A DNA stretch of 64,000 nucleotides, taken from NCBI GenBank assembly GCA_963768215.1, contig CAVYHW010000045.1, positions 1,821 to 65,820 of the forward strand. The letters are read 5' to 3'. This document shows, piece by piece, positions 4,271-56,810 of the stretch. The notes under the pieces were generated by a model, which worked only from the letters and a program-made list of their open reading frames with translations, made no database searches and was not told the DNA's origin. Source of the DNA: an uncultured Gammaproteobacteria bacterium. Lineage in GTDB: Bacteria > Pseudomonadota > Gammaproteobacteria > SZUA-229. A program made the position numbers and the translations under genes. Each line of letters starts with the position of its first letter. The first letter of the stretch is position 1.

Positions 4271-6331
4271 TTAAAGACGATACGCAAGTTCAAGACCATC
4301 CCTGATGGCTGTTTCTGCATCCAGCTCAGCTGCTTTTTTGGCACCACCGATAATATACACACTTTGGCCTATGTCACGGATCTGTTGATACAGTAAATTT
4401 TCAGATTTCTGCCCTGCACAGATAATGACATGATCAACAGCGATAACCTGTTTTTTCCCCTGATGTACGATATGCAGACCGTAATCATCAATTTTCTCGT
4501 AGACCAGATCAGATAACATCTTCACGCCTGCTTTGCGTAATGTCAGGCGCCGTATCCAGCCGGTTGTTCGTGCCAGGTTTTTTCCTGGTTTTTCGGCTTT
4601 ACGCTGCAACAGGTAGACCTCACGTTCACTGTGATGGTTCACCGGCTTATCTAACAGGCCACCACGATTCTTATATTGCCTGTCGATTCCCCAGTTTTCA
4701 TACCAGCTTTCTCTGCTGCACGAGTTACCGTCTTTACTGATCAACATCTCCGCGATATCAAAGCCGATTCCGCCAGCACCGATGATGGCCACTTTACTTT
4801 TCAGCGATGTTTTATTTTTAATGGCTGTTTCATAATCCATTACCGAGAAGTGTTCGATACCCTCGATGTCCGGTTTTCTTGGTGTAACCCCAGTGGCAAA
4901 TATGACCGCATCGGCATAAGTATCACGCAGATCTTCAAAAGCCACTTTGAAATTTCGATGCACCTCGACGTTCAGCAAGGTGAGCTGTGCTTCATAATAC
5001 CTAACCGTTTCATGATAGATTTCTTTGCCGGGTATCTCACTGGCCAGATTGAACTGGCCACCGAGGTTGTTTGCATCATAAGCGATAACATGATGACCGC
5101 GTAAAGCGGCATAATAAGCACACGATAAACCCGCCACGCCGAGCCCGACGATAATAATCGTTTTACACCGTTCCGCTTTGGTCAACGGGAACTCAGTCTC
5201 ATAAGCCGCTCGCGGGTTAACCAAACAGGTCGCCCTTTCCTGCTTGAACACACGATCAAGACAACCTTGATTACAGGCGATACATCGATTGATCAGATGC
5301 GACTCATTATTTTTTGCTTTCTGCACGAATTGACTGTCAGCAAGAAACGGCCTGGCCATCGATATCAGATCAGCGTCTCCATCCTGCAAACACTGCTCTG
5401 CCAGCTCAGGACTGTTTATCCGGTTTGAGGTGATCAGCGGTATATTAACAACCTGCTTTAATTTTTTTGTCACCCAGGTAAAAGCTGCTTCTGGCACAAC
5501 CGAAGCGATGGTTGGAATCCTTACCTCATGCCAGCCGATGCCAGTATTGATTATAGTGGCACCGGCTTTCTCGACCTGTTTTGCATGCTGTTCAATTTCC
5601 GGCCAACTGCTGCCGTCTTTATGCAGGTCGAGCATCGACAGTCGATAGATGATGATAAAGTCTTCACCCACAGCCCGCCGTATCGCCTGAATGATCTGCA
5701 GAGAAAAACGGATTCGATTTTCGAACGAGCCGCCCCATTCATCCTGTCGTTGATTGGTATTACTGCAGACAAACTGGTTTATCAGATAACCTTCAGAGCC
5801 CATCACTTCAACACCGTCATAACCCGCTCGCCTGGCAAGCCGTGCCGTATTTGCATAGGCGCTGATTATCTTGTTAATTTTTTTGTGGGTTAACTGCCTG
5901 GGAGAAAACGGCGAGATAGGTGACTGGATAGCGGAAGGTGCAACCGAAAATGGATGGTAGGCATAACGTCCTGCATGCAGGATCTGCAGACAGATTTTTG
6001 TTTCATGGCGATGCACTGCATCAACTAATTTACGATGTTTTGCGATCTGAAAAAAGGAGCTAAACTGCGATGCCATTAAAGACAGGCGGCCGCTAAAAGT
6101 TGGCGAGATACCGCCGGTGATAATCAAGCCGACTCCCGCCTTCGCTCGCTCCTCATAAAAACTGGCTAGCTTATCAAAACCTGACCAGTGCTCTTCCAGA
6201 CCGGTATGCATGGAACCCATGATGGTGCGATTACTTAGCTGGGTAAAACCCAGATCGAGCGGTTTCATCAAGAAGCAGAAATAAGACTTATTACTGGTTA
6301 AATTACTGGAATTCATATGAGATTCATCCAT
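4271..6331 (-). CDS. fadH: NADPH-dependent 2,4-dienoyl-CoA reductase (Old Yellow Enzyme domain + FAD/NAD(P)-binding domain)
   Basis: Old Yellow Enzyme domain (GSMHTGLEE…, HAGRYAYHP) followed by a Cys-cluster linker (RCIACNQGCLDRVF) and Rossmann folds (IVGLGVAGLSCAYYAA, IIGAGGIGFD). The true start is probably the internal MKPLDLGF at ~6268. Confidence 0.85.
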   Translation of the reverse strand: MDESHMNSSNLTSNKSYFCFLMKPLDLGFTQLSNRTIMGSMHTGLEEHWSGFDKLASFYEERAKAGVGLIITGGISPTFSGRLSLMASQFSSFFQIAKHRKLVDAVHRHETKICLQILHAGRYAYHPFSVAPSAIQSPISPFSPRQLTHKKINKIISAYANTARLARRAGYDGVEVMGSEGYLINQFVCSNTNQRQDEWGGSFENRIRFSLQIIQAIRRAVGEDFIIIYRLSMLDLHKDGSSWPEIEQHAKQVEKAGATIINTGIGWHEVRIPTIASVVPEAAFTWVTKKLKQVVNIPLITSNRINSPELAEQCLQDGDADLISMARPFLADSQFVQKAKNNESHLINRCIACNQGCLDRVFKQERATCLVNPRAAYETEFPLTKAERCKTIIIVGLGVAGLSCAYYAALRGHHVIAYDANNLGGQFNLASEIPGKEIYHETVRYYEAQLTLLNVEVHRNFKVAFEDLRDTYADAVIFATGVTPRKPDIEGIEHFSVMDYETAIKNKTSLKSKVAIIGAGGIGFDIAEMLISKDGNSCSRESWYENWGIDRQYKNRGGLLDKPVNHHSEREVYLLQRKAEKPGKNLARTTGWIRRLTLRKAGVKMLSDLVYEKIDDYGLHIVHQGKKQVIAVDHVIICAGQKSENLLYQQIRDIGQSVYIIGGAKKAAELDAETAIRDGLELAYRL

Positions 6332-6516: not shown

Positions 6517-8277
6517 ATGTATAACCAGTACTTCGGATTTAAAGAGGCGCCTTTCTCTATTGCGCCCGATCCACATTATCTATATATGACGGCGCAACAC
6601 CGTGAAGCACTGGCTCATCTGGTTTACGGTTTAAACAGTGAAGGCGCCTGCATCCTGCTCACTGGCGAGGTTGGCACGGGTAAAACGACCATCTGCAGAT
6701 GCCTGCTAGAACAGGTTCCGGAACAGGCAAAAGTCGCATTAGTACTCAACCCTAAAGTCAGTGAAATCGAATTACTCGAGACCATCTGTGATGAATTGAA
6801 AATCAGTTATCCTGACACGGACAACAGCCTCAAAACTTATACAGATAAGATCTATGAATTCTTAATCGAAAGTAATCGCAAAAATGAAAAAACCGTATTA
6901 ATCATCGATGAAGCACAGAACCTGAGCAGTCCAGTCCTCGAACAACTTCGCTTGCTCACCAATCTGGAAACCAACCAACGCAAGTTATTACAGATCATTA
7001 TTTTAGGCCAGCCAGAACTGCTGGATATCCTGGCGAAATCCGAGATGCGGCAGCTTGCACAACGTATCACCGCACGCTTCCATCTAAAACCGCTGTCAAA
7101 AGATGAGGTTAAATCTTATGTCAGTCATCGCCTTGCCGTCGCCGGACAAAATATACAGTTATTTCCTGACAGCAGCATCAAGTTACTTTTTAAACTCAGC
7201 AAAGGCATACCCCGACTGATCAATGTTTTATGCGACCGCGCTTTGCTCGGTGCCTACGTAGAAAGCCAGAACTCAGTCAATCCGAACATCATAAAAAAAG
7301 CTGCAACAGAAGTTTTTGGTGAGTTAAAAAATGTTGAAAATAAGAATAAATTCAAACACTGGTTATATTCAGTCACTGCAGCATCCAGCATTATTCTACT
7401 TGTTAGCGTCCTGATCTTCTACATCACGCAGCCAGAAAACAGCGGCAGTGCTATTATAGAAAATCCCTTCACGCAAGAACAAACAACTTCGTTAGATAAT
7501 CATGCCGAGGATACAAACGAAACAAAAACCACTCCATTCCTTTCAGCGTTATCTGATCAGGAGACAGACTCATTACCAGGATCGCTAGGTGGACAGCCCA
7601 TCACCGATCCTGATGTTGCGACAACAGGCAGTTCAAGTACAGTCGAAAAAAACGCCACAACGCTAACTCAATATGATGATATGAAAGAAATATTAAATAA
7701 TGACTCAGACAGTATTGCCTCAGCTTATCAGGCGCTATTTAAATTGTGGGGAGAAAACTACAATATCAATCTTGCTGATACTGCATGCAAACAGGCAAAA
7801 TCACATTCTCTTGGCTGCCTGTACAAACAGGGAAACTTAAACAATCTAAAAGCGCATAGTCGCCCGGCTGTTTTAACGCTGATTAACAACGATGGTAGCA
7901 CGCACTACATTACTGTCGCTTCGATACACGAGGATTATGCCAAAGTATTTTATGACAATAGCGAATACAAAATCAGACTCAGCGATCTGGATAAATACTG
8001 GTACGGGCAGTTTGTTTTACTGTGGAAAAAACCAGCCAACTATTCTTCTGCCGTCACACCTGGCGACAAAGGCCCGATCGTAAGCTGGCTAAGATCACAT
8101 TTCGAGACTAAAAAACTTACAGGCAACGACCGCTACGATAAAAAGTTAATAAATGAAGTTAAAAGTTTTCAGTCACAACATGGATTAGCTGCTGATGGAA
8201 TCGTCGGCCCTGTTACTATCATCCATTTAAATACACAGTCTGGCTTAGCCGCGCCTACGCTAATCAAACAGAATTAA
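6517..8277 (+). CDS. gspA: GspA/ExeA-like AAA ATPase with C-terminal peptidoglycan-binding domain
   Basis: Walker A LLTGEVGTGKTT in the ExeA-type N-terminus, a TM segment, and a C-terminal PG-binding motif (SFQSQHGLAADGIVGPVT). Confidence 0.8.
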   Translation: MYNQYFGFKEAPFSIAPDPHYLYMTAQHREALAHLVYGLNSEGACILLTGEVGTGKTTICRCLLEQVPEQAKVALVLNPKVSEIELLETICDELKISYPDTDNSLKTYTDKIYEFLIESNRKNEKTVLIIDEAQNLSSPVLEQLRLLTNLETNQRKLLQIIILGQPELLDILAKSEMRQLAQRITARFHLKPLSKDEVKSYVSHRLAVAGQNIQLFPDSSIKLLFKLSKGIPRLINVLCDRALLGAYVESQNSVNPNIIKKAATEVFGELKNVENKNKFKHWLYSVTAASSIILLVSVLIFYITQPENSGSAIIENPFTQEQTTSLDNHAEDTNETKTTPFLSALSDQETDSLPGSLGGQPITDPDVATTGSSSTVEKNATTLTQYDDMKEILNNDSDSIASAYQALFKLWGENYNINLADTACKQAKSHSLGCLYKQGNLNNLKAHSRPAVLTLINNDGSTHYITVASIHEDYAKVFYDNSEYKIRLSDLDKYWYGQFVLLWKKPANYSSAVTPGDKGPIVSWLRSHFETKKLTGNDRYDKKLINEVKSFQSQHGLAADGIVGPVTIIHLNTQSGLAAPTLIKQN

Positions 8278-9030: not shown

Positions 9031-9648
9031 CTAAAATTCACATTCCGCAAATAAGTGCATTTTCTTGTTGGTAACCGGATGTTCAAATAATAAATTATCG
9101 GCATGCAGCAACATCCTGGGCTGTTCTATTTCATCATTACCATATAAGCCATCACCAATAATCGGATGCTCCATCGCTTTGCAATGTACGCGTAACTGAT
9201 GCGTTCGACCCGTTTCCGGTTTAAGTAATAAACGAACAGAATCTGTATTTCTCTGTAATACCTGCCAGTGAGTTACTGCTGACTTACCATGTTCATAATC
9301 AACGATCTGCCGTGGCCGATCTTCTATATCACAACGCATAGGGAATTTAATCACACCTTCGTTTTCTTCAAGCCATTGCTTTACTACTGCGATATATTGC
9401 TTCTCAATTTTTCTATCATGAAAGATCCGACTTAAGGCTCGCTGCATCTCGATACCGATAGCAAACAGCATGATACCCGAGGTGTAGCAGTCGAGCCGAT
9501 GCACAACTTTTGCCTGGGGAATTAACCTCTCTAATCTATTTATCACACAGTCCTGCTTGTCAGGTCCTAAACCGGGCACAGACAATAAAGCCTGTGGTTT
9601 ATTCACCGCAAGGATGTATTCGTCCTGATATAGTATTTCAATCGTCAT
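9031..9648 (-). CDS. RluA-family pseudouridine synthase (short form, TruC/RluA-like)
   Basis: Catalytic motif VHRLDCYTSGIMLFA and HQLRVH. 205 aa, no S4 domain. Confidence 0.85.
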   Translation of the reverse strand: MTIEILYQDEYILAVNKPQALLSVPGLGPDKQDCVINRLERLIPQAKVVHRLDCYTSGIMLFAIGIEMQRALSRIFHDRKIEKQYIAVVKQWLEENEGVIKFPMRCDIEDRPRQIVDYEHGKSAVTHWQVLQRNTDSVRLLLKPETGRTHQLRVHCKAMEHPIIGDGLYGNDEIEQPRMLLHADNLLFEHPVTNKKMHLFAECEF

Positions 9649-52325: not shown

Positions 52326-52456
52326 AAGCTTTTCACCACAGAGGCACAGAGTACACAGAGTTTAATCATTAAATTTGTTAGATGCGCCGTAGGCGCATCT
52401 AACTAAATAATGATTTTACTCTGTGCTCTCTGTGCCTCTGTGGTGAAAAGCTTTTA
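52326..52456. repeat. ~130-bp palindromic REP/MITE-like element, copy 1 (arms AAAGCTTTTCACCACAGAGGCACAGAGTACACAGAG)
   Basis: Near-perfect long hairpin with a palindromic core (GTTAGATGCGCC-GTAG-GCGCATCTAAC). Related copy at 53620-53735. Confidence 0.75.
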
Positions 52457-52496: not shown

Positions 52497-53258
52497 ATGG
52501 CCTGGTGGGGGACATTTATTGGCGGCACCTTAGGTTACGTTTTTGGCGGGCCAATCGGTGCACTCATTGGTGCGGCGCTCGGCGGCAACCTGGACCGCGG
52601 TATCAAAATGGGTGACCAGTTCGATACCGGCAACCAGGAACGTGTACAACTGGCTTTTTTTACAACTACTTTTTCTGTTATGGGCCATATTGCCAAGGCA
52701 GATGGTCATGTTAGCGCACAGGAAATTTCTTCCGCCAAAAACATTATGGCGCAAATGCAGTTATCTGCTCAACAGCGAAAAGCGGCCATTAAGCTTTTTG
52801 ACCAGGGCAAAGCCACTGGCTTTCCACTAGAAGAGGTATTACACCAGTTTAAAAAAGAATGTCATGGTCGGCGCAACCTGGTCCAGATGTTTATTGAAAT
52901 CCAGATTGCCACAGCACTGGCTGACGGCAAAATCGATAGCAGTGAAAAACGCATTCTTTATACTATTGGTGAAATTCTTGGTTTCTCACGCAGCCAAATT
53001 GAGCACTTATTTAATATCGCAAATGGCGCCAAGGCCAGCGCCAGTGAAACATTAACATTGACCCAGGCATACAAAATTCTTGGTGTTAGCAAAGGCAGCA
53101 GTGAGGCCGAAATTAAAAAAGCTTATCGACGCCTGATGAGTCAGCATCATCCTGACAAACTTGTGGCGAAAGGTTTGCCCGATGAGATGATTGCTCTGGC
53201 GACAGAAAAAACCCAGGAAATCAGAAAAGCATACGATTTAATAAAAAAACACTTATAG
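52497..53258 (+). CDS. djlA: DnaJ-like co-chaperone DjlA
   Basis: N-terminal TM, TerB-like middle domain, C-terminal J-domain (YKILGVSKGSSEAEIKKAYRRLMSQHHPDK). Confidence 0.85.
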   Translation: MAWWGTFIGGTLGYVFGGPIGALIGAALGGNLDRGIKMGDQFDTGNQERVQLAFFTTTFSVMGHIAKADGHVSAQEISSAKNIMAQMQLSAQQRKAAIKLFDQGKATGFPLEEVLHQFKKECHGRRNLVQMFIEIQIATALADGKIDSSEKRILYTIGEILGFSRSQIEHLFNIANGAKASASETLTLTQAYKILGVSKGSSEAEIKKAYRRLMSQHHPDKLVAKGLPDEMIALATEKTQEIRKAYDLIKKHL

Positions 53259-53265
53259 GTTAACA

Positions 53266-53589
53266 ATGGAAATTACAGGCCCGCTAAATATTGGCGTTTT
53301 AGATAATGACACAGGTGGTCGAGAACTGCACCTGAGCTTTAAACCTGAATTTAGAATTTTAAATTTACAGCAGCAGACAGAAAGCTTTCAGGAGTTTATC
53401 AGCACTTTAATCAATCAAATCCAGAAACTTGATGCGTCTGATGTCAACCGTCAGGGCATGACCACTATCTTGCAAATTTGCGAGCAGTTAAAGCCACATA
53501 TTGAGAGTAATGAATTGCCGCTGGAAGAAACTATCGTGGTTAATATTCAGACCCATAGTCCGTTTGGCAATATTAAGATTTCGGGGTAG
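53266..53589 (+). CDS. Hypothetical 107-aa protein co-transcribed with djlA
   Basis: 8-nt gap after djlA. No known motif. Confidence 0.45.
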   Translation: MEITGPLNIGVLDNDTGGRELHLSFKPEFRILNLQQQTESFQEFISTLINQIQKLDASDVNRQGMTTILQICEQLKPHIESNELPLEETIVVNIQTHSPFGNIKISG

Positions 53590-53618
53590 GACTGTACTGA
53601 GAAATAAGCTTTAAAAAC

Positions 53619-53735
<117 letters not shown>

Positions 53736-53751
53736 TCTTTATGTACTAAAG

Positions 53752-54159
53752 TTAATTAATTTTTGAACCGCTTAATTCCCAGGCATACGCACAGTCCAGT
53801 TCAGATAAAACAGCCACCACACCTGTTTCACCATCTTCCAGCATGGCCTGTAGAGGGCACCGGTTCTTTAGTCGTGCATGTGGCGCAGCCATCCAGCGCG
53901 CACCCATCTGTAAATTTCTTGGGTAAGAAGTGCGCAAGGCATCAATAATGCCCAGTAAAAACTTTACCCGGCATGCCACATTTTCATCATCGGGAAACGG
54001 TGTATCTTTACGATATTTTGCCAGATGACGACTGCGCTCAGTCTCAGGAAAATCCAGAATGGCGAGTATCTGATCACCACTCAAACCCCAGTCATCCAGT
54101 GCATTCATCACTTTTTGTGTATGCAACAATTTTTGTTCAGCACTTATGGTAATAGTCAT
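53752..54159 (-). CDS. DUF2384 (Xre-like antitoxin C-terminal/MbcA-ParS type) domain protein, no cognate toxin adjacent
   Basis: C-terminal RNLQMGARWMAAPHARLKNRCPLQAMLEDGETGVVAVLSELDCAYAWE fits the DUF2384 pattern (A..Wl..pn..lgg..Pl.ll.t..G...V...L..i..G). Confidence 0.55.
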   Translation of the reverse strand: MTITISAEQKLLHTQKVMNALDDWGLSGDQILAILDFPETERSRHLAKYRKDTPFPDDENVACRVKFLLGIIDALRTSYPRNLQMGARWMAAPHARLKNRCPLQAMLEDGETGVVAVLSELDCAYAWELSGSKIN

Positions 54160-54244
54160 GATTTATTAAATTGGGGACTTATCGGGTTAAAATGAGTCAT
54201 AATTTTACCATATTTACCGTTTTTCAATAACCACAGGAAAATTC

Positions 54245-54790
54245 ATGGCAATACAGCCGGTATTACGCCTAGGCGACCCACGATTACTAGCAACTGCATC
54301 TAAAGTTGATGGGTTCAATTCCGCTGAACTTGATACTTTGATTAGAGATATGTTCGACACCATGGAAGCGAATGATGGCGCTGGACTGGCAGCACCACAA
54401 ATAGGCGTTGCTTTACGTGTGGTAATTTTTGGTTTTGATAACAATCCTCGTTATCCAGAAAGCCCTGCCGTCCCTAAAACGGTTTTAATCAATCCAGAAA
54501 TCACGCCGCTAAATGATCACAAAGAAGATGGCTGGGAAGGCTGCTTAAGTGTTCCCGGAATGCGTGGCGCGGTTTCACGTTTTACTAAAATCCACTATAC
54601 CGGTTATGACGCCTCAGGCAACCCTGTTGATGTCAGGGCGGAAGGCTTTCATGCCCGCGTGGTACAGCATGAATGCGACCATCTTGATGGCATTATTTAT
54701 ACACAACGTTTAACTGATCCAGGAAAATTTGGCTTTATCGAGGAATTGCTCAGCTCCGGTCAGCTAAATACTGGCCAGTGTTCTGAATAA
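54245..54790 (+). CDS. def: Peptide deformylase
   Basis: Motifs GLAAPQIG, EGCLSVPG, HECDHLDG. Confidence 0.9.
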   Translation: MAIQPVLRLGDPRLLATASKVDGFNSAELDTLIRDMFDTMEANDGAGLAAPQIGVALRVVIFGFDNNPRYPESPAVPKTVLINPEITPLNDHKEDGWEGCLSVPGMRGAVSRFTKIHYTGYDASGNPVDVRAEGFHARVVQHECDHLDGIIYTQRLTDPGKFGFIEELLSSGQLNTGQCSE

Positions 54791-54996
54791 CATGTTTTAC
54801 CAGGCAACAGAATATGTTTATTTCTATTACTAATGCAACCTGTACTGCTATAAATAATACAGATGGAAACTTTAACAGCTCGAACACAAATACAATAAAC
54901 CGGTCGCATATTATAGTTTGCACTTTAAAGTTATTTTAAAACGCATTTAGCCTATCATTATGGATAATACAGTTTAACAATCCGCAGTCATCCTTT

Positions 54997-55566
54997 ATGA
55001 AATCTTATTCCATCACCTTCGCTTTATTCATTAATTTCTTTTTCCAGCCTATGTCATGGGCAACCAGTTTATTACCCATCAGCCTTGAGCAACTTTCGAC
55101 TCGCGCAACTTTAATTTTTTACGGAGAGGTTGTAAGTAATCAGGTAAAAAAAGATGAACCACATGGGCACATTGTCACTTTTACTGAATTCAATATAATC
55201 GAATTAATTAAAGGCAATGCTGGCGATAGCCACACTATAAAACAAATTGGTGGCTCTTTAAAAGAAAGCAATATCAGGCTTCGAATTCATGGTGTGCCTG
55301 AATTTGTAACCGGTAAAGAATATGTCGTTTTTTTACCGGAAAAGTCTCAACGTGGATTTAGTAGCCCATTAGGTTTACATCAGGGTGCATTTTCTGTTGA
55401 GAGTATTAATGGTGAAAAAATTGTAAGTAACGGCAGCAAACCAGCACCACAGGTTAATTCTGGTAATCGAAGTATAAATATCCCACTAGCCATAAATCCT
55501 GAGAACCCAACTCAGTCAAATCTGAATAACTTCATTAATACTGTGCGAGCATACAATATTCAATAA
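54997..55566 (+). CDS. Secreted hypothetical protein (189 aa) upstream of the metzincin
   Basis: Signal peptide. 5-nt gap to the next gene. No motif. Confidence 0.5.
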   Translation: MKSYSITFALFINFFFQPMSWATSLLPISLEQLSTRATLIFYGEVVSNQVKKDEPHGHIVTFTEFNIIELIKGNAGDSHTIKQIGGSLKESNIRLRIHGVPEFVTGKEYVVFLPEKSQRGFSSPLGLHQGAFSVESINGEKIVSNGSKPAPQVNSGNRSINIPLAINPENPTQSNLNNFINTVRAYNIQ

Positions 55567-55571
55567 GTAAG

Positions 55572-56810
55572 ATGATAAAGTCATTCAGAATAATCTGTGT
55601 TTTCCTTTTGCAAATCTACGGCAGCATATCTTATGCTGGCGGCCCTTTAGCTGCAGTAAGCCTCAATGGAGGCACAGCTGTTACTTATCAGGACTCAAAC
55701 ATTACATTACATATAGAAAATGGTGACCTGGGCGGCCTTTCTAACGCAGTGGCTGTTACACTCATGCAGGAAGCATTTGAACTATGGAACAGTATAACCA
55801 CATCTAGTATAAACCTGAATTTGGACCAGACCCAAATAGCACTTGATATTGACCACCTTAACTATCAGGTTTATTTACCTAATGAAACAGACAACTTGAA
55901 TCCCATTATTTTTGACTCCGACGGGAAAATTATTGATGAATATCTAGGTAATTCCCAAAGCGATTTAATATTAGGGTTTGCCGAATCAATAGTTAATACC
56001 GCAACAGGCCATTTTATTGAAGGCAGTATTGTACTTAATGGCAAGATAACTGGCAGAACAAATACAGAAATCAAACTGACTTTTGCACATGAAGCCGCAC
56101 ATTTTTTTGGACTTGACCATTCACAAAACGATATCAACAATCAGGAATCTTTTTTTGATTTGCCACTATTCTGCTTTACCACAAATTCAGATAACTATCC
56201 TCTGATGTATCCAGTTTCATGCCGTGAAAATGAAACTTTGCATGCCGATGATATCAGTGCAGCATCTGCACTTTATCCTGCAGCAAACGTCAATGACAGC
56301 TTTGGTATTTTAAATGGGCAGTTTTTTGATGAATCAGGTAATGCTATTTTAGGCGCCAACATCTGGGCAGAGAATACTACAACAGGTGAAATTGTCAGTA
56401 TTGTCTCGGATTATTTAAAACAGGGCACAGGTTATTACAAACTATATCTGCCGCCAGGTATGTATACACTGCATGCAAACTCTATAAATACAGAATTTAC
56501 AGCTGGTTCTGGCGTAGGGCCATATTCTCTTACCAGTTCTGATATATCATTTACTGAACCTCACCCTATAGCAGAAGTAACATATCATGGCAGCAATGAA
56601 GCCAATGATGAAGTTATCTCTATTATGGACAACCAGGCAGTGGCCATAGATTTCGCCAGCACGGGTGCACTTATCGTAACCGAATCCAGCAATGAGTCAG
56701 AAGATGATAGCTGGCGTGACTTATTTGGTGCGACGTCACATATAACGCTATTAATAATGGCTGGCCTTTTAGTATTTGGACGTTTAATTACTAAACCGAA
56801 GTCTGCGTGA
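55572..56810 (+). CDS. Secreted M10-family (matrixin/serralysin-like) zinc metalloprotease with C-terminal hydrophobic-basic tail
   Basis: Signal peptide. HEAAHFFGLDHS (HExxHxxGxxH) plus Met-turn YPLMYP. The C-terminal …SHITLLIMAGLLVFGRLITKPKSA looks like a sorting or anchor signal. Confidence 0.75.
   Translation: MIKSFRIICVFLLQIYGSISYAGGPLAAVSLNGGTAVTYQDSNITLHIENGDLGGLSNAVAVTLMQEAFELWNSITTSSINLNLDQTQIALDIDHLNYQVYLPNETDNLNPIIFDSDGKIIDEYLGNSQSDLILGFAESIVNTATGHFIEGSIVLNGKITGRTNTEIKLTFAHEAAHFFGLDHSQNDINNQESFFDLPLFCFTTNSDNYPLMYPVSCRENETLHADDISAASALYPAANVNDSFGILNGQFFDESGNAILGANIWAENTTTGEIVSIVSDYLKQGTGYYKLYLPPGMYTLHANSINTEFTAGSGVGPYSLTSSDISFTEPHPIAEVTYHGSNEANDEVISIMDNQAVAIDFASTGALIVTESSNESEDDSWRDLFGATSHITLLIMAGLLVFGRLITKPKSA

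Follow-up and report, generated by a model that had tools for sequence, protein, structure and literature searches.

The gene on the minus strand at positions 53,752–54,159 of the window, the whole 64,000-nucleotide stretch of DNA from an uncultured gammaproteobacterium that was analyzed, raises the question of whether it is the remainder of a broken toxin–antitoxin pair or a gene that functions on its own. The encoded protein carries the C-terminal domain PF09722 (Xre_MbcA_ParS_C, formerly DUF2384), which is the toxin-binding domain of its family. In canonical relatives, the toxin gene is located immediately downstream, in the place that is filled by a palindromic repeat in the window. The gene and its relatives in approximately 70 genomes of sulfur bacteria never adjoin a toxin gene; therefore, it is a conserved stand-alone gene and not a broken toxin–antitoxin pair. 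The locus contains the following features, given in the order of their positions.

52,497–53,258, plus strand: DjlA-like gene (djlA) with TerB and DnaJ domains
53,266–53,589, plus strand: orf107, a gene for a conserved hypothetical protein of 107 residues, which starts 8 bp past the djlA stop codon and is convergent with the DUF2384 gene
53,615–53,740, no strand assigned: palindromic element (REP/MITE-like) of 126 bp where orf107 and the DUF2384 gene converge
53,752–54,159, minus strand: DUF2384 gene, 135 residues, ATG start; the N-terminal half of the product is an Xre-like helix-turn-helix (HTH), and the C-terminal half is DUF2384 (PF09722)
54,160–54,244, no strand assigned: divergent intergenic region of 85 bp between the DUF2384 gene and def, with the DUF2384 promoter and a possible operator
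54,245–54,790, plus strand: def (peptide deformylase), upstream of and divergent from the DUF2384 gene

The assignment of the C-terminal half to DUF2384, which the initial annotation had made from the sequence alone and proposed to verify with a profile search, is confirmed. PF09722 matches residues 87–122 of the protein with 28.2 bits, above the gathering cut-off of 24.5 bits (E = 1.8e-6), and the distant orthologue from locus L062 also exceeds the cut-off with 27.8 bits. The match of the Xre-like HTH family PF20432 to residues 17–59 is below its cut-off (13.6 versus 25.8 bits); despite this, the N-terminal half of the window protein aligns structurally with that of NatR in Foldseek. The two top matches of a 41-member profile (alignment A1) in the PDB are MbcA (6fkg_C, E = 0.0024) and Xre of P. 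putida (6gw6_B, E = 0.019). The AlphaFold2 model built on A1 consists of seven helices and has a pLDDT of 89.8 and a pTM of 0.83. Its best Foldseek match in the PDB is NatR, with both domains aligned over 117–123 columns (E = 5.6e-5, TM 0.69–0.81). MbcA, VPA0769, and Xre follow, and every other fold has E > 1; the Foldseek probability is 1.00 for NatR, MbcA, and VPA0769, and 0.93 for Xre. The Pfam score, the profile matches, and the comparison of the model with solved structures together indicate that the domain assignment is real and extends over the whole two-domain fold. The window protein is thus a member of the PF09722 family, by score as well as by the three-dimensional fold of the solved members, and it combines an Xre-like HTH with DUF2384 as do the antitoxins NatR, MbcA, ParS, and Xre. 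The NCBIfam antitoxin models score far below their cut-offs (17.9 versus 90 bits for NF049845, type II RES/Xre antitoxin, and 12.7 versus 57 bits for TIGR02293), and neither the window protein nor the products of the neighboring genes match a PADLOC-DB defense model at E <= 0.01.

Alignment A1, the 41 sequences of which span down to 37% identity, contains 22 invariant columns. The invariant residues include D22, W24, R44, R64, 74-ALRT-77, P80, N82, W89, R96, P102, D122, C123, and W127. Two invariant motifs are specific to the family, D73-A-L-R-T-x-x-P-R-N82 and L121-D-C123-x-x-x-W127. In the predicted recognition helix E41–K51, R44 is invariant, and R42 and R50 are nearly so. The protein is mildly acidic, with an isoelectric point of 5.9.

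The surroundings of the gene in the window are those of an ordinary core chromosome. Further out from the DUF2384 gene are a Lon N-terminal-domain gene, fur, a DUF3501 gene, and genes for a CCG-domain Fe-S protein, a GGDEF-EAL sensor, and an M10-like peptidase. The rest of the window includes S20, glyQ, thiG, prk (phosphoribulokinase), ppa (pyrophosphatase), lspA, and type IV pilins, and the GC content is uniform at 0.39–0.45. The statement of the initial annotation that the gene has no toxin partner beside it agrees with the scan: the 162-bp gap to orf107 is filled by the palindromic repeat, the convergent orf107 comes next, and none of the approximately 40 open reading frames of the window scanned with Pfam contains a RES or ART domain. 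When a single RES toxin served as the tblastn query against the window and 98 loci, in a search of the kind proposed earlier for the detection of toxin relics, it matched only its source locus, L077, and the duplicate L078, and no relic was found in the window. An adjacent downstream toxin gene (RES, PF08808, or ParT-type ART), which characterizes the RES–Xre, MbcT–MbcA, ParT–ParS, and NatRT modules, is therefore lacking.

The two genes next to the DUF2384 gene were considered as candidates for a toxin relic, a partner, or a target. The product of orf107 has no match in Pfam, NCBIfam, or PADLOC. More than 35 syntenic loci have the gene, with 43–88% identity and a dN/dS of 0.051, and it probably encodes a DjlA-associated protein. 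The lack of a RES, ART, or other Pfam match, together with its own conservation in these loci, indicates that orf107 is not a toxin relic. It was rejected as an obligate partner because it is missing from approximately nine loci that keep the DUF2384 gene and from all other genomic contexts. The divergent pairing with def is found within one lineage, and it is lost in L029, L030, L071, and all other contexts; a general link that would make def a regulatory target of the DUF2384 protein is not supported. In the window (54,245–56,810 region), def is not trailed by fmt; instead, it is followed by a 189-residue gene without a Pfam match and then by a gene for a 412-residue protein, which weakly matches Peptidase_M10, with a score slightly over the Pfam cut-off, and CarboxypepD_reg, with a score below it. 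These two genes evolve much faster than their neighbors, with 54–62% identity compared to approximately 85%.

The survey of relatives comprised one genome per species and 73 loci with relatives 46–90% identical to the window protein, all from metagenome-assembled genomes (MAGs) of uncultured Thiotrichaceae or Gammaproteobacteria. No toxin gene is linked to the DUF2384 gene at any of the 73 loci. The order def, DUF2384, orf107, djlA is kept in 48 of them (58–90% identity), which disagrees with the earlier suggestion that rearrangements of the orf107 and djlA region caused the loss of a toxin. The full order shared by the 48 loci is GGDEF-EAL, peptidase, orf189, def, DUF2384, orf107, djlA, lonN, fur, DUF3501, and CCG protein. 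The distance from the stop codon of the DUF2384 gene to the next conserved gene is 8–442 bp, and less than 60 bp in approximately 18 of 45 loci. In relatives free of the palindrome, only 8–60 bp separate the stop codon of the DUF2384 gene from that of orf107 or djlA. The widest gaps contain just short open reading frames of 30–42 residues, save for one antisense frame that overlaps the DUF2384 gene itself. A toxin of at least 150 residues could not have been accommodated there since the lineages diverged.

In comparison with 23 close orthologues, the window DUF2384 gene has a dN of 0.081, which is the lowest among ten compared neighboring genes, a saturated dS of 1.82, and a dN/dS of 0.045; the corresponding dN/dS ratios are 0.047 for djlA, 0.075 for fur, and 0.10 for def. 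Purifying selection thus acts on the gene as strongly as on the surrounding housekeeping genes. The low dN/dS together with the saturated dS indicates that the solitary state is ancient and that the gene has been maintained in it. The patchy, mobile, and fast-evolving distribution of toxin–antitoxin genes is not observed; instead, the gene has a fixed synteny in the 48 loci, a low dN, a uniform GC content, and housekeeping surroundings. Because there is no adjacent toxin, no mobile distribution, and no NCBIfam antitoxin match above the cut-off, the window gene is not part of a RES–Xre, MbcTA, ParST, or NatRT toxin–antitoxin module.

The palindromic element adjoining the gene, which had already been recognized in the initial annotation, has 49-nucleotide arms at 53,615–53,663 and 53,692–53,740 that are 92% complementary. 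Its predicted folding energy is −86 kcal/mol (z = −14.9). Four copies of the outer arm TTCACCACAGAGGCACAGAGTACACAGAG are present in the window, where none is expected by chance, and they form two complete elements at 52,327–52,452 and 53,615–53,740. Both copies have a common central GCGCCGYAGGCGC hairpin, and their inner stems differ in sequence while staying self-complementary. The conserved outer arms of this family of approximately 120-bp repeats read TTCACCACAGAGGCACAGAG[T/G]ACACAGAG. Copies are positioned at other intergenic sites in eight related MAGs, including the gap between djlA and lonN in L003 and three sites in L011 (L003:3085–3202; L011 at approximately 5491–5540, 6853–6958, and 9070–9181; L013:5411–5536; L039:5423–5543). 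The repeat is found downstream of the DUF2384 gene in L011, L013, L017, L024, L028, and L039, and many relatives lack one there. A search of Rfam with the palindrome returned no family, just sub-threshold miRNA-hairpin noise. The second copy in the window and the variable sites in relatives indicate that a REP/MITE-like dispersed repeat landed in the convergent intergenic gap, and the family looks like a REP/MITE-like element of Thiotrichaceae-type genomes. The palindrome is a bystander that does not belong to the system of the DUF2384 gene; in addition, its hairpin probably terminates transcription from both directions.

The recent loss of a RES, ParT, or MbcT toxin, deleted or replaced by the palindrome, as had been proposed from the antitoxin-type fold and Pfam family and from the repeat that now occupies the place of the toxin, is effectively refuted by the solitary genes at 73 of 73 loci and in each other sampled context, the gaps of 8–60 bp in many repeat-free relatives, the variable sites of the repeat, the dN/dS of 0.045 with saturated dS, the flanks without similarity to RES, and the absence of a Pfam match in orf107. 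Orthologues that are always solitary are also the pattern that the initial annotation had itself set against its proposal.

At least eight other genomic contexts of DUF2384 genes were sampled, including those of SUP05/Thioglobus, Sulfurifustis, and Sulfuricaulis, and none of them contains a RES toxin gene.

L049–53: DUF2384 gene after an ABC-2 transporter gene and convergent with a pterin-4a-carbinolamine dehydratase gene; no toxin
L055–L070, SUP05/Thioglobus-type (for example L062:3761–5822 and L067:4673–5830): same-strand trio of a conserved gene for approximately 100 residues, the DUF2384 gene, and a CxxCxxCC gene (PF03692, YkgJ-like); no toxin
Sulfurifustis variabilis SVA_1075: flanked by an OmpA-family gene and a Sel1 gene; no toxin
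Sulfuricaulis: DUF2384 gene follows prfC; no toxin
P0412 and P0487: two further contexts; no toxin
LDCTQNW subgroup: a convergent SPOR-domain gene, or a Sel1 gene next; no toxin
LxGxxxW subgroup: a convergent EamA gene; no toxin

The same look-up method detects a toxin where one exists: in a distant subgroup without the C-terminal tail (P0469 and P0478), a PF08808 RES gene is located 10–13 bp downstream of the DUF2384 gene. The contigs that bear P0314 and P0300 are too short to inform on the context, and the scan with P0299 as the query gave no match. The downstream neighbors from the different contexts (the CxxCxxCC gene, open reading frames of 135, 127, 118, and 115 residues, Sel1, and L049_133) have no homology to each other in an all-against-all BLASTP comparison. 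Those without an assigned function have no match, toxins included, in Pfam or PADLOC. A common partner among the downstream genes was rejected given the absence of both mutual homology and such matches.

At E <= 0.001, the query matches 257 clusters at 50% identity among 1.84 billion representatives. The C-terminal tails were classified in the 122 representatives of at least 110 residues that are among the best 150 of the 257 clusters. The LDC..W tail is present in 57 of them, 25 have the tryptophan only, 36 have neither residue, and 4 are truncated in the region. Linkage to RES is confirmed for two members of the group with neither cysteine nor tryptophan. This RES-linked subgroup D, known from metagenomes (P0469 and P0478), contains the nearest sequence relatives that are bona fide antitoxins. 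Its members have approximately 30–38% identity to the stand-alone clade, with which they share the length and the order of helices. However, they match both PF20432 and PF09722, end with YLDxxRG without the Cys/Trp tail, and lack the DALRTxxPRN motif as well as LDCxxxW. Database names for members of the stand-alone clade are limited to "hypothetical" and "DUF2384 / MbcA-ParS-Xre antitoxin family". The passages, titles, and abstracts on DUF2384 that were consulted do not mention the stand-alone clade; in those passages, the domain is the partner of a RES toxin or part of a nuclease-fused HTH protein.

If the gene is not half of a linked pair, its product could act in trans as an antitoxin or anti-addiction factor, the DUF2384 half of which neutralizes a RES- or ART-type toxin encoded elsewhere or on mobile elements. 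Conservation within the protein is highest in the C-terminal toxin-binding domain (W89, P93, H94, R96, P102, and G113), and the toxin search in this genome covered 64 kb, both of which leave some room for such a function. Nevertheless, it is improbable. Immunity and anti-addiction genes have a patchy and fast-evolving pattern, whereas the DUF2384 gene has 80–90% identity and fixed synteny across many species and is present in SUP05/Thioglobus genomes. Moreover, the approximately 40 scanned open reading frames of the window contain no RES or ART domain, there is no PADLOC match, and the DALRTxxPRN and LDCxxxW motifs of the clade are missing from the RES-linked subgroup.

The region between the DUF2384 gene and def provides indications of how the gene may be controlled. 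The 49 orthologous regions were aligned, and three features on the minus strand were identified.

54,227 to 54,199, minus strand: promoter-like site TTGAAA-17-AATTAT within the 85-bp region
54,210 to 54,202 (54,202–54,210), minus strand: extended −10 element TGGTAAAAT, which reads towards the DUF2384 gene
54,188–54,207, minus strand: inverted repeat TAAAAT-N8-ATTTTA, which overlaps the −10 element and the predicted start site

All 49 sequences have the pattern TGnTAnnnT at the corresponding place of the alignment, and 40 of them have the strict form TGnTA[AT]A[AC]T. The DUF2384 gene thus has its own conserved extended −10 promoter. The transcript would start near position 54,195 and have a leader of approximately 36 nucleotides without a clear Shine–Dalgarno sequence. 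The inverted repeat TAAAAT-N8-ATTTTA, with at most one mismatch, occurs in 23 of the 49 regions, all from the closest clade, and more distant orthologues lack it. The repeat is a candidate operator for autoregulation; however, its conservation may be mere conservation of the promoter because it overlaps the −10 element. No operator or upstream motif shared by DUF2384 genes across the different genomic contexts is visible, and a common operator was therefore rejected. The 5′ leader of the DUF2384 gene contains a GAAG-N6-CTTC hairpin with a conserved stem and a variable loop in 20 of 49 relatives, which are within L001–L024 and L054 (for example L004 at approximately 4960–4975). The hairpin is deleted in the window (54,160–54,195), and L003 and L019 also lack it.

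The protein may be an adaptor that binds a protein or ligand and has no DNA-binding role, with the HTH-like half serving for dimerization only, as has been proposed for some antitoxins of the MbcA/ParS type. This function is conceivable, if somewhat unlikely. It agrees with a cluster of family-specific invariant residues outside the HTH (R64, D73–N82, R96, D122, C123, and W127), the sub-threshold match of PF20432, the acidic character of the protein (pI 5.9), the lack of a common operator across contexts, and the confinement of the clade to sulfur-oxidizing lineages. It is possible that the partner of such an adaptor is an enzyme handling NAD or ADP-ribose, or that the adaptor senses redox state or persulfides through Cys123. 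However, there is no neighbor conserved across contexts to suggest a partner, the arginines of the recognition helix are invariant or nearly so, and the nearest structural relatives bind DNA.

The explanation favored here, with a probability of roughly 0.55, is that the gene codes for a dimeric HTH regulator that stands alone and acts at least on its own promoter, with the DUF2384 half serving for dimerization or for the binding of a partner or ligand. A solo regulator was the alternative mentioned in the initial annotation, and the solitary orthologues, the purifying selection, and the conserved promoter speak in its favor; the regulatory function itself would follow from the likeness to characterized antitoxins. 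The gene is a vertically inherited member of a clade whose function does not depend on a linked toxin. The C-terminal LDCxxxW and the DALRTxxPRN loop mark this clade, which is located in chromosomal core regions of sulfur-oxidizing Gammaproteobacteria (Thiotrichaceae-like MAGs, SUP05/Thioglobus, Sulfurifustis, and Sulfuricaulis). The protein would form a small cytoplasmic dimer that binds DNA through the retained HTH, with R42, R44, and R50 of the recognition helix E41–K51, and represses its own strong extended −10 promoter and possibly further targets. The DUF2384 half would be a module for dimerization or for a partner or ligand rather than a toxin plug.

DNA binding, autoregulation, and a target bound by the C-terminal half are ascribed to the window protein by analogy with its structural relatives. 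NatR is an autorepressor that contacts promoter DNA through the arginines of its recognition helix (PMC11535050), and P. putida Xre does the same (PMC12204516). In the NatRT and Xre–RES systems, tight repression requires the toxin-bound hexamer (PMC11535050, PMC12204516); therefore, a lone antitoxin-like protein may bind DNA poorly. The restriction of the inverted repeat to one clade, the lack of a motif across contexts, the sub-threshold PF20432 match, and the pI of 5.9 also count against a regulator.

The best structural match, NatR (PA1029 of the NatR–NatT system of P. aeruginosa; PDB 8QNL and 8QNQ), resembles the window protein in its length of approximately 130 residues, and in the combination of an HTH with an Xre/MbcA/ParS-type C-terminal domain; NatR autorepresses its operon (PMC11535050). 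However, the two proteins are only 17–18% identical, natT follows natR, and NatR acts as a repressor in a 4:2 complex with the toxin, whereas no orthologue of the window gene has a toxin, and its clade has the specific DALRTxxPRN and LDCxxxW motifs. MbcA (Rv1990c of the MbcT–MbcA system of M. tuberculosis; PDB 6FKG) is the best profile match in the PDB (E = 0.0024 over profile residues 42–109; Foldseek E = 1.9e-3) and has the DUF2384 core W-x3-P-[NH]-x-x-[LF]-x3-x-P in common with the window protein. MbcA is co-transcribed with the NAD+ phosphorylase MbcT, which it neutralizes; by contrast, the window gene, the product of which is 23% identical to MbcA, has no MbcT-like partner. P. putida Xre (PDB 6GW6 and 9R35) follows the same logic of HTH plus DUF2384, and the basic residues at the equivalent helix are kept in the window protein. 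Xre differs in its canonical Cro/C1 HTH, its longer N-terminus (149 residues), and a TM score of 0.42–0.45, and to our knowledge it is always paired with RES.

A more far-reaching version of a toxin-independent function is a long shot. The domesticated antitoxin fold could be a core regulator specific to sulfur-oxidizing Gammaproteobacteria, in which Cys123 and the DALRTxxPRN loop sense a thiol, persulfide, redox, or NAD-derived signal and thereby switch DNA binding. If true, it would represent a new class of one-component sensors derived from the Xre/MbcA/ParS family.

Automatic annotation names such proteins "MbcA/ParS/Xre antitoxin family protein", and pipelines that predict toxin–antitoxin systems may count them as orphan antitoxins. 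The solitary, syntenic clade under housekeeping-like constraint cautions against taking each DUF2384 match as a remnant of a toxin–antitoxin system. It is a clean example of an antitoxin-type fold that persists without a toxin, including in the SUP05 sulfur oxidizers, which are ecologically important. The LDCxxxW tail and the DALRTxxPRN loop are simple markers by which stand-alone forms can be told from RES-linked ones. As long as no target or partner has been identified, the impact of these findings is modest.

Several other genes occur close to DUF2384 genes. A NUDIX hydrolase gene with an N-terminal Zn-ribbon (PF14803 and PF00293) is located on the minus strand at 62,163–62,786 of the window, 8 kb from the DUF2384 gene; it is mentioned solely on the ground that the biology of the RES/ParT family centers on NAD and ADP-ribose. 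In the SUP05/Thioglobus-type loci, a stand-alone TerB-domain gene and a YccV/HspQ gene are positioned just upstream of the trio. The proximity of TerB to DUF2384 in both these loci and the window, where TerB is part of DjlA, may be due to chance or to residual synteny. In three contexts that are otherwise unrelated, the solitary DUF2384 gene has a neighbor that encodes a Sel1-repeat protein of approximately 200 residues (L074:5421–6029, L076:1350–1913, L092:2465–3079, and L093:498–1130). The Sel1 copy of Sulfurifustis (L074) has an N-terminus that resembles a signal peptide, and in L092–L094 the Sel1 gene starts 2 bp past the stop codon of the DUF2384 gene on the same strand.
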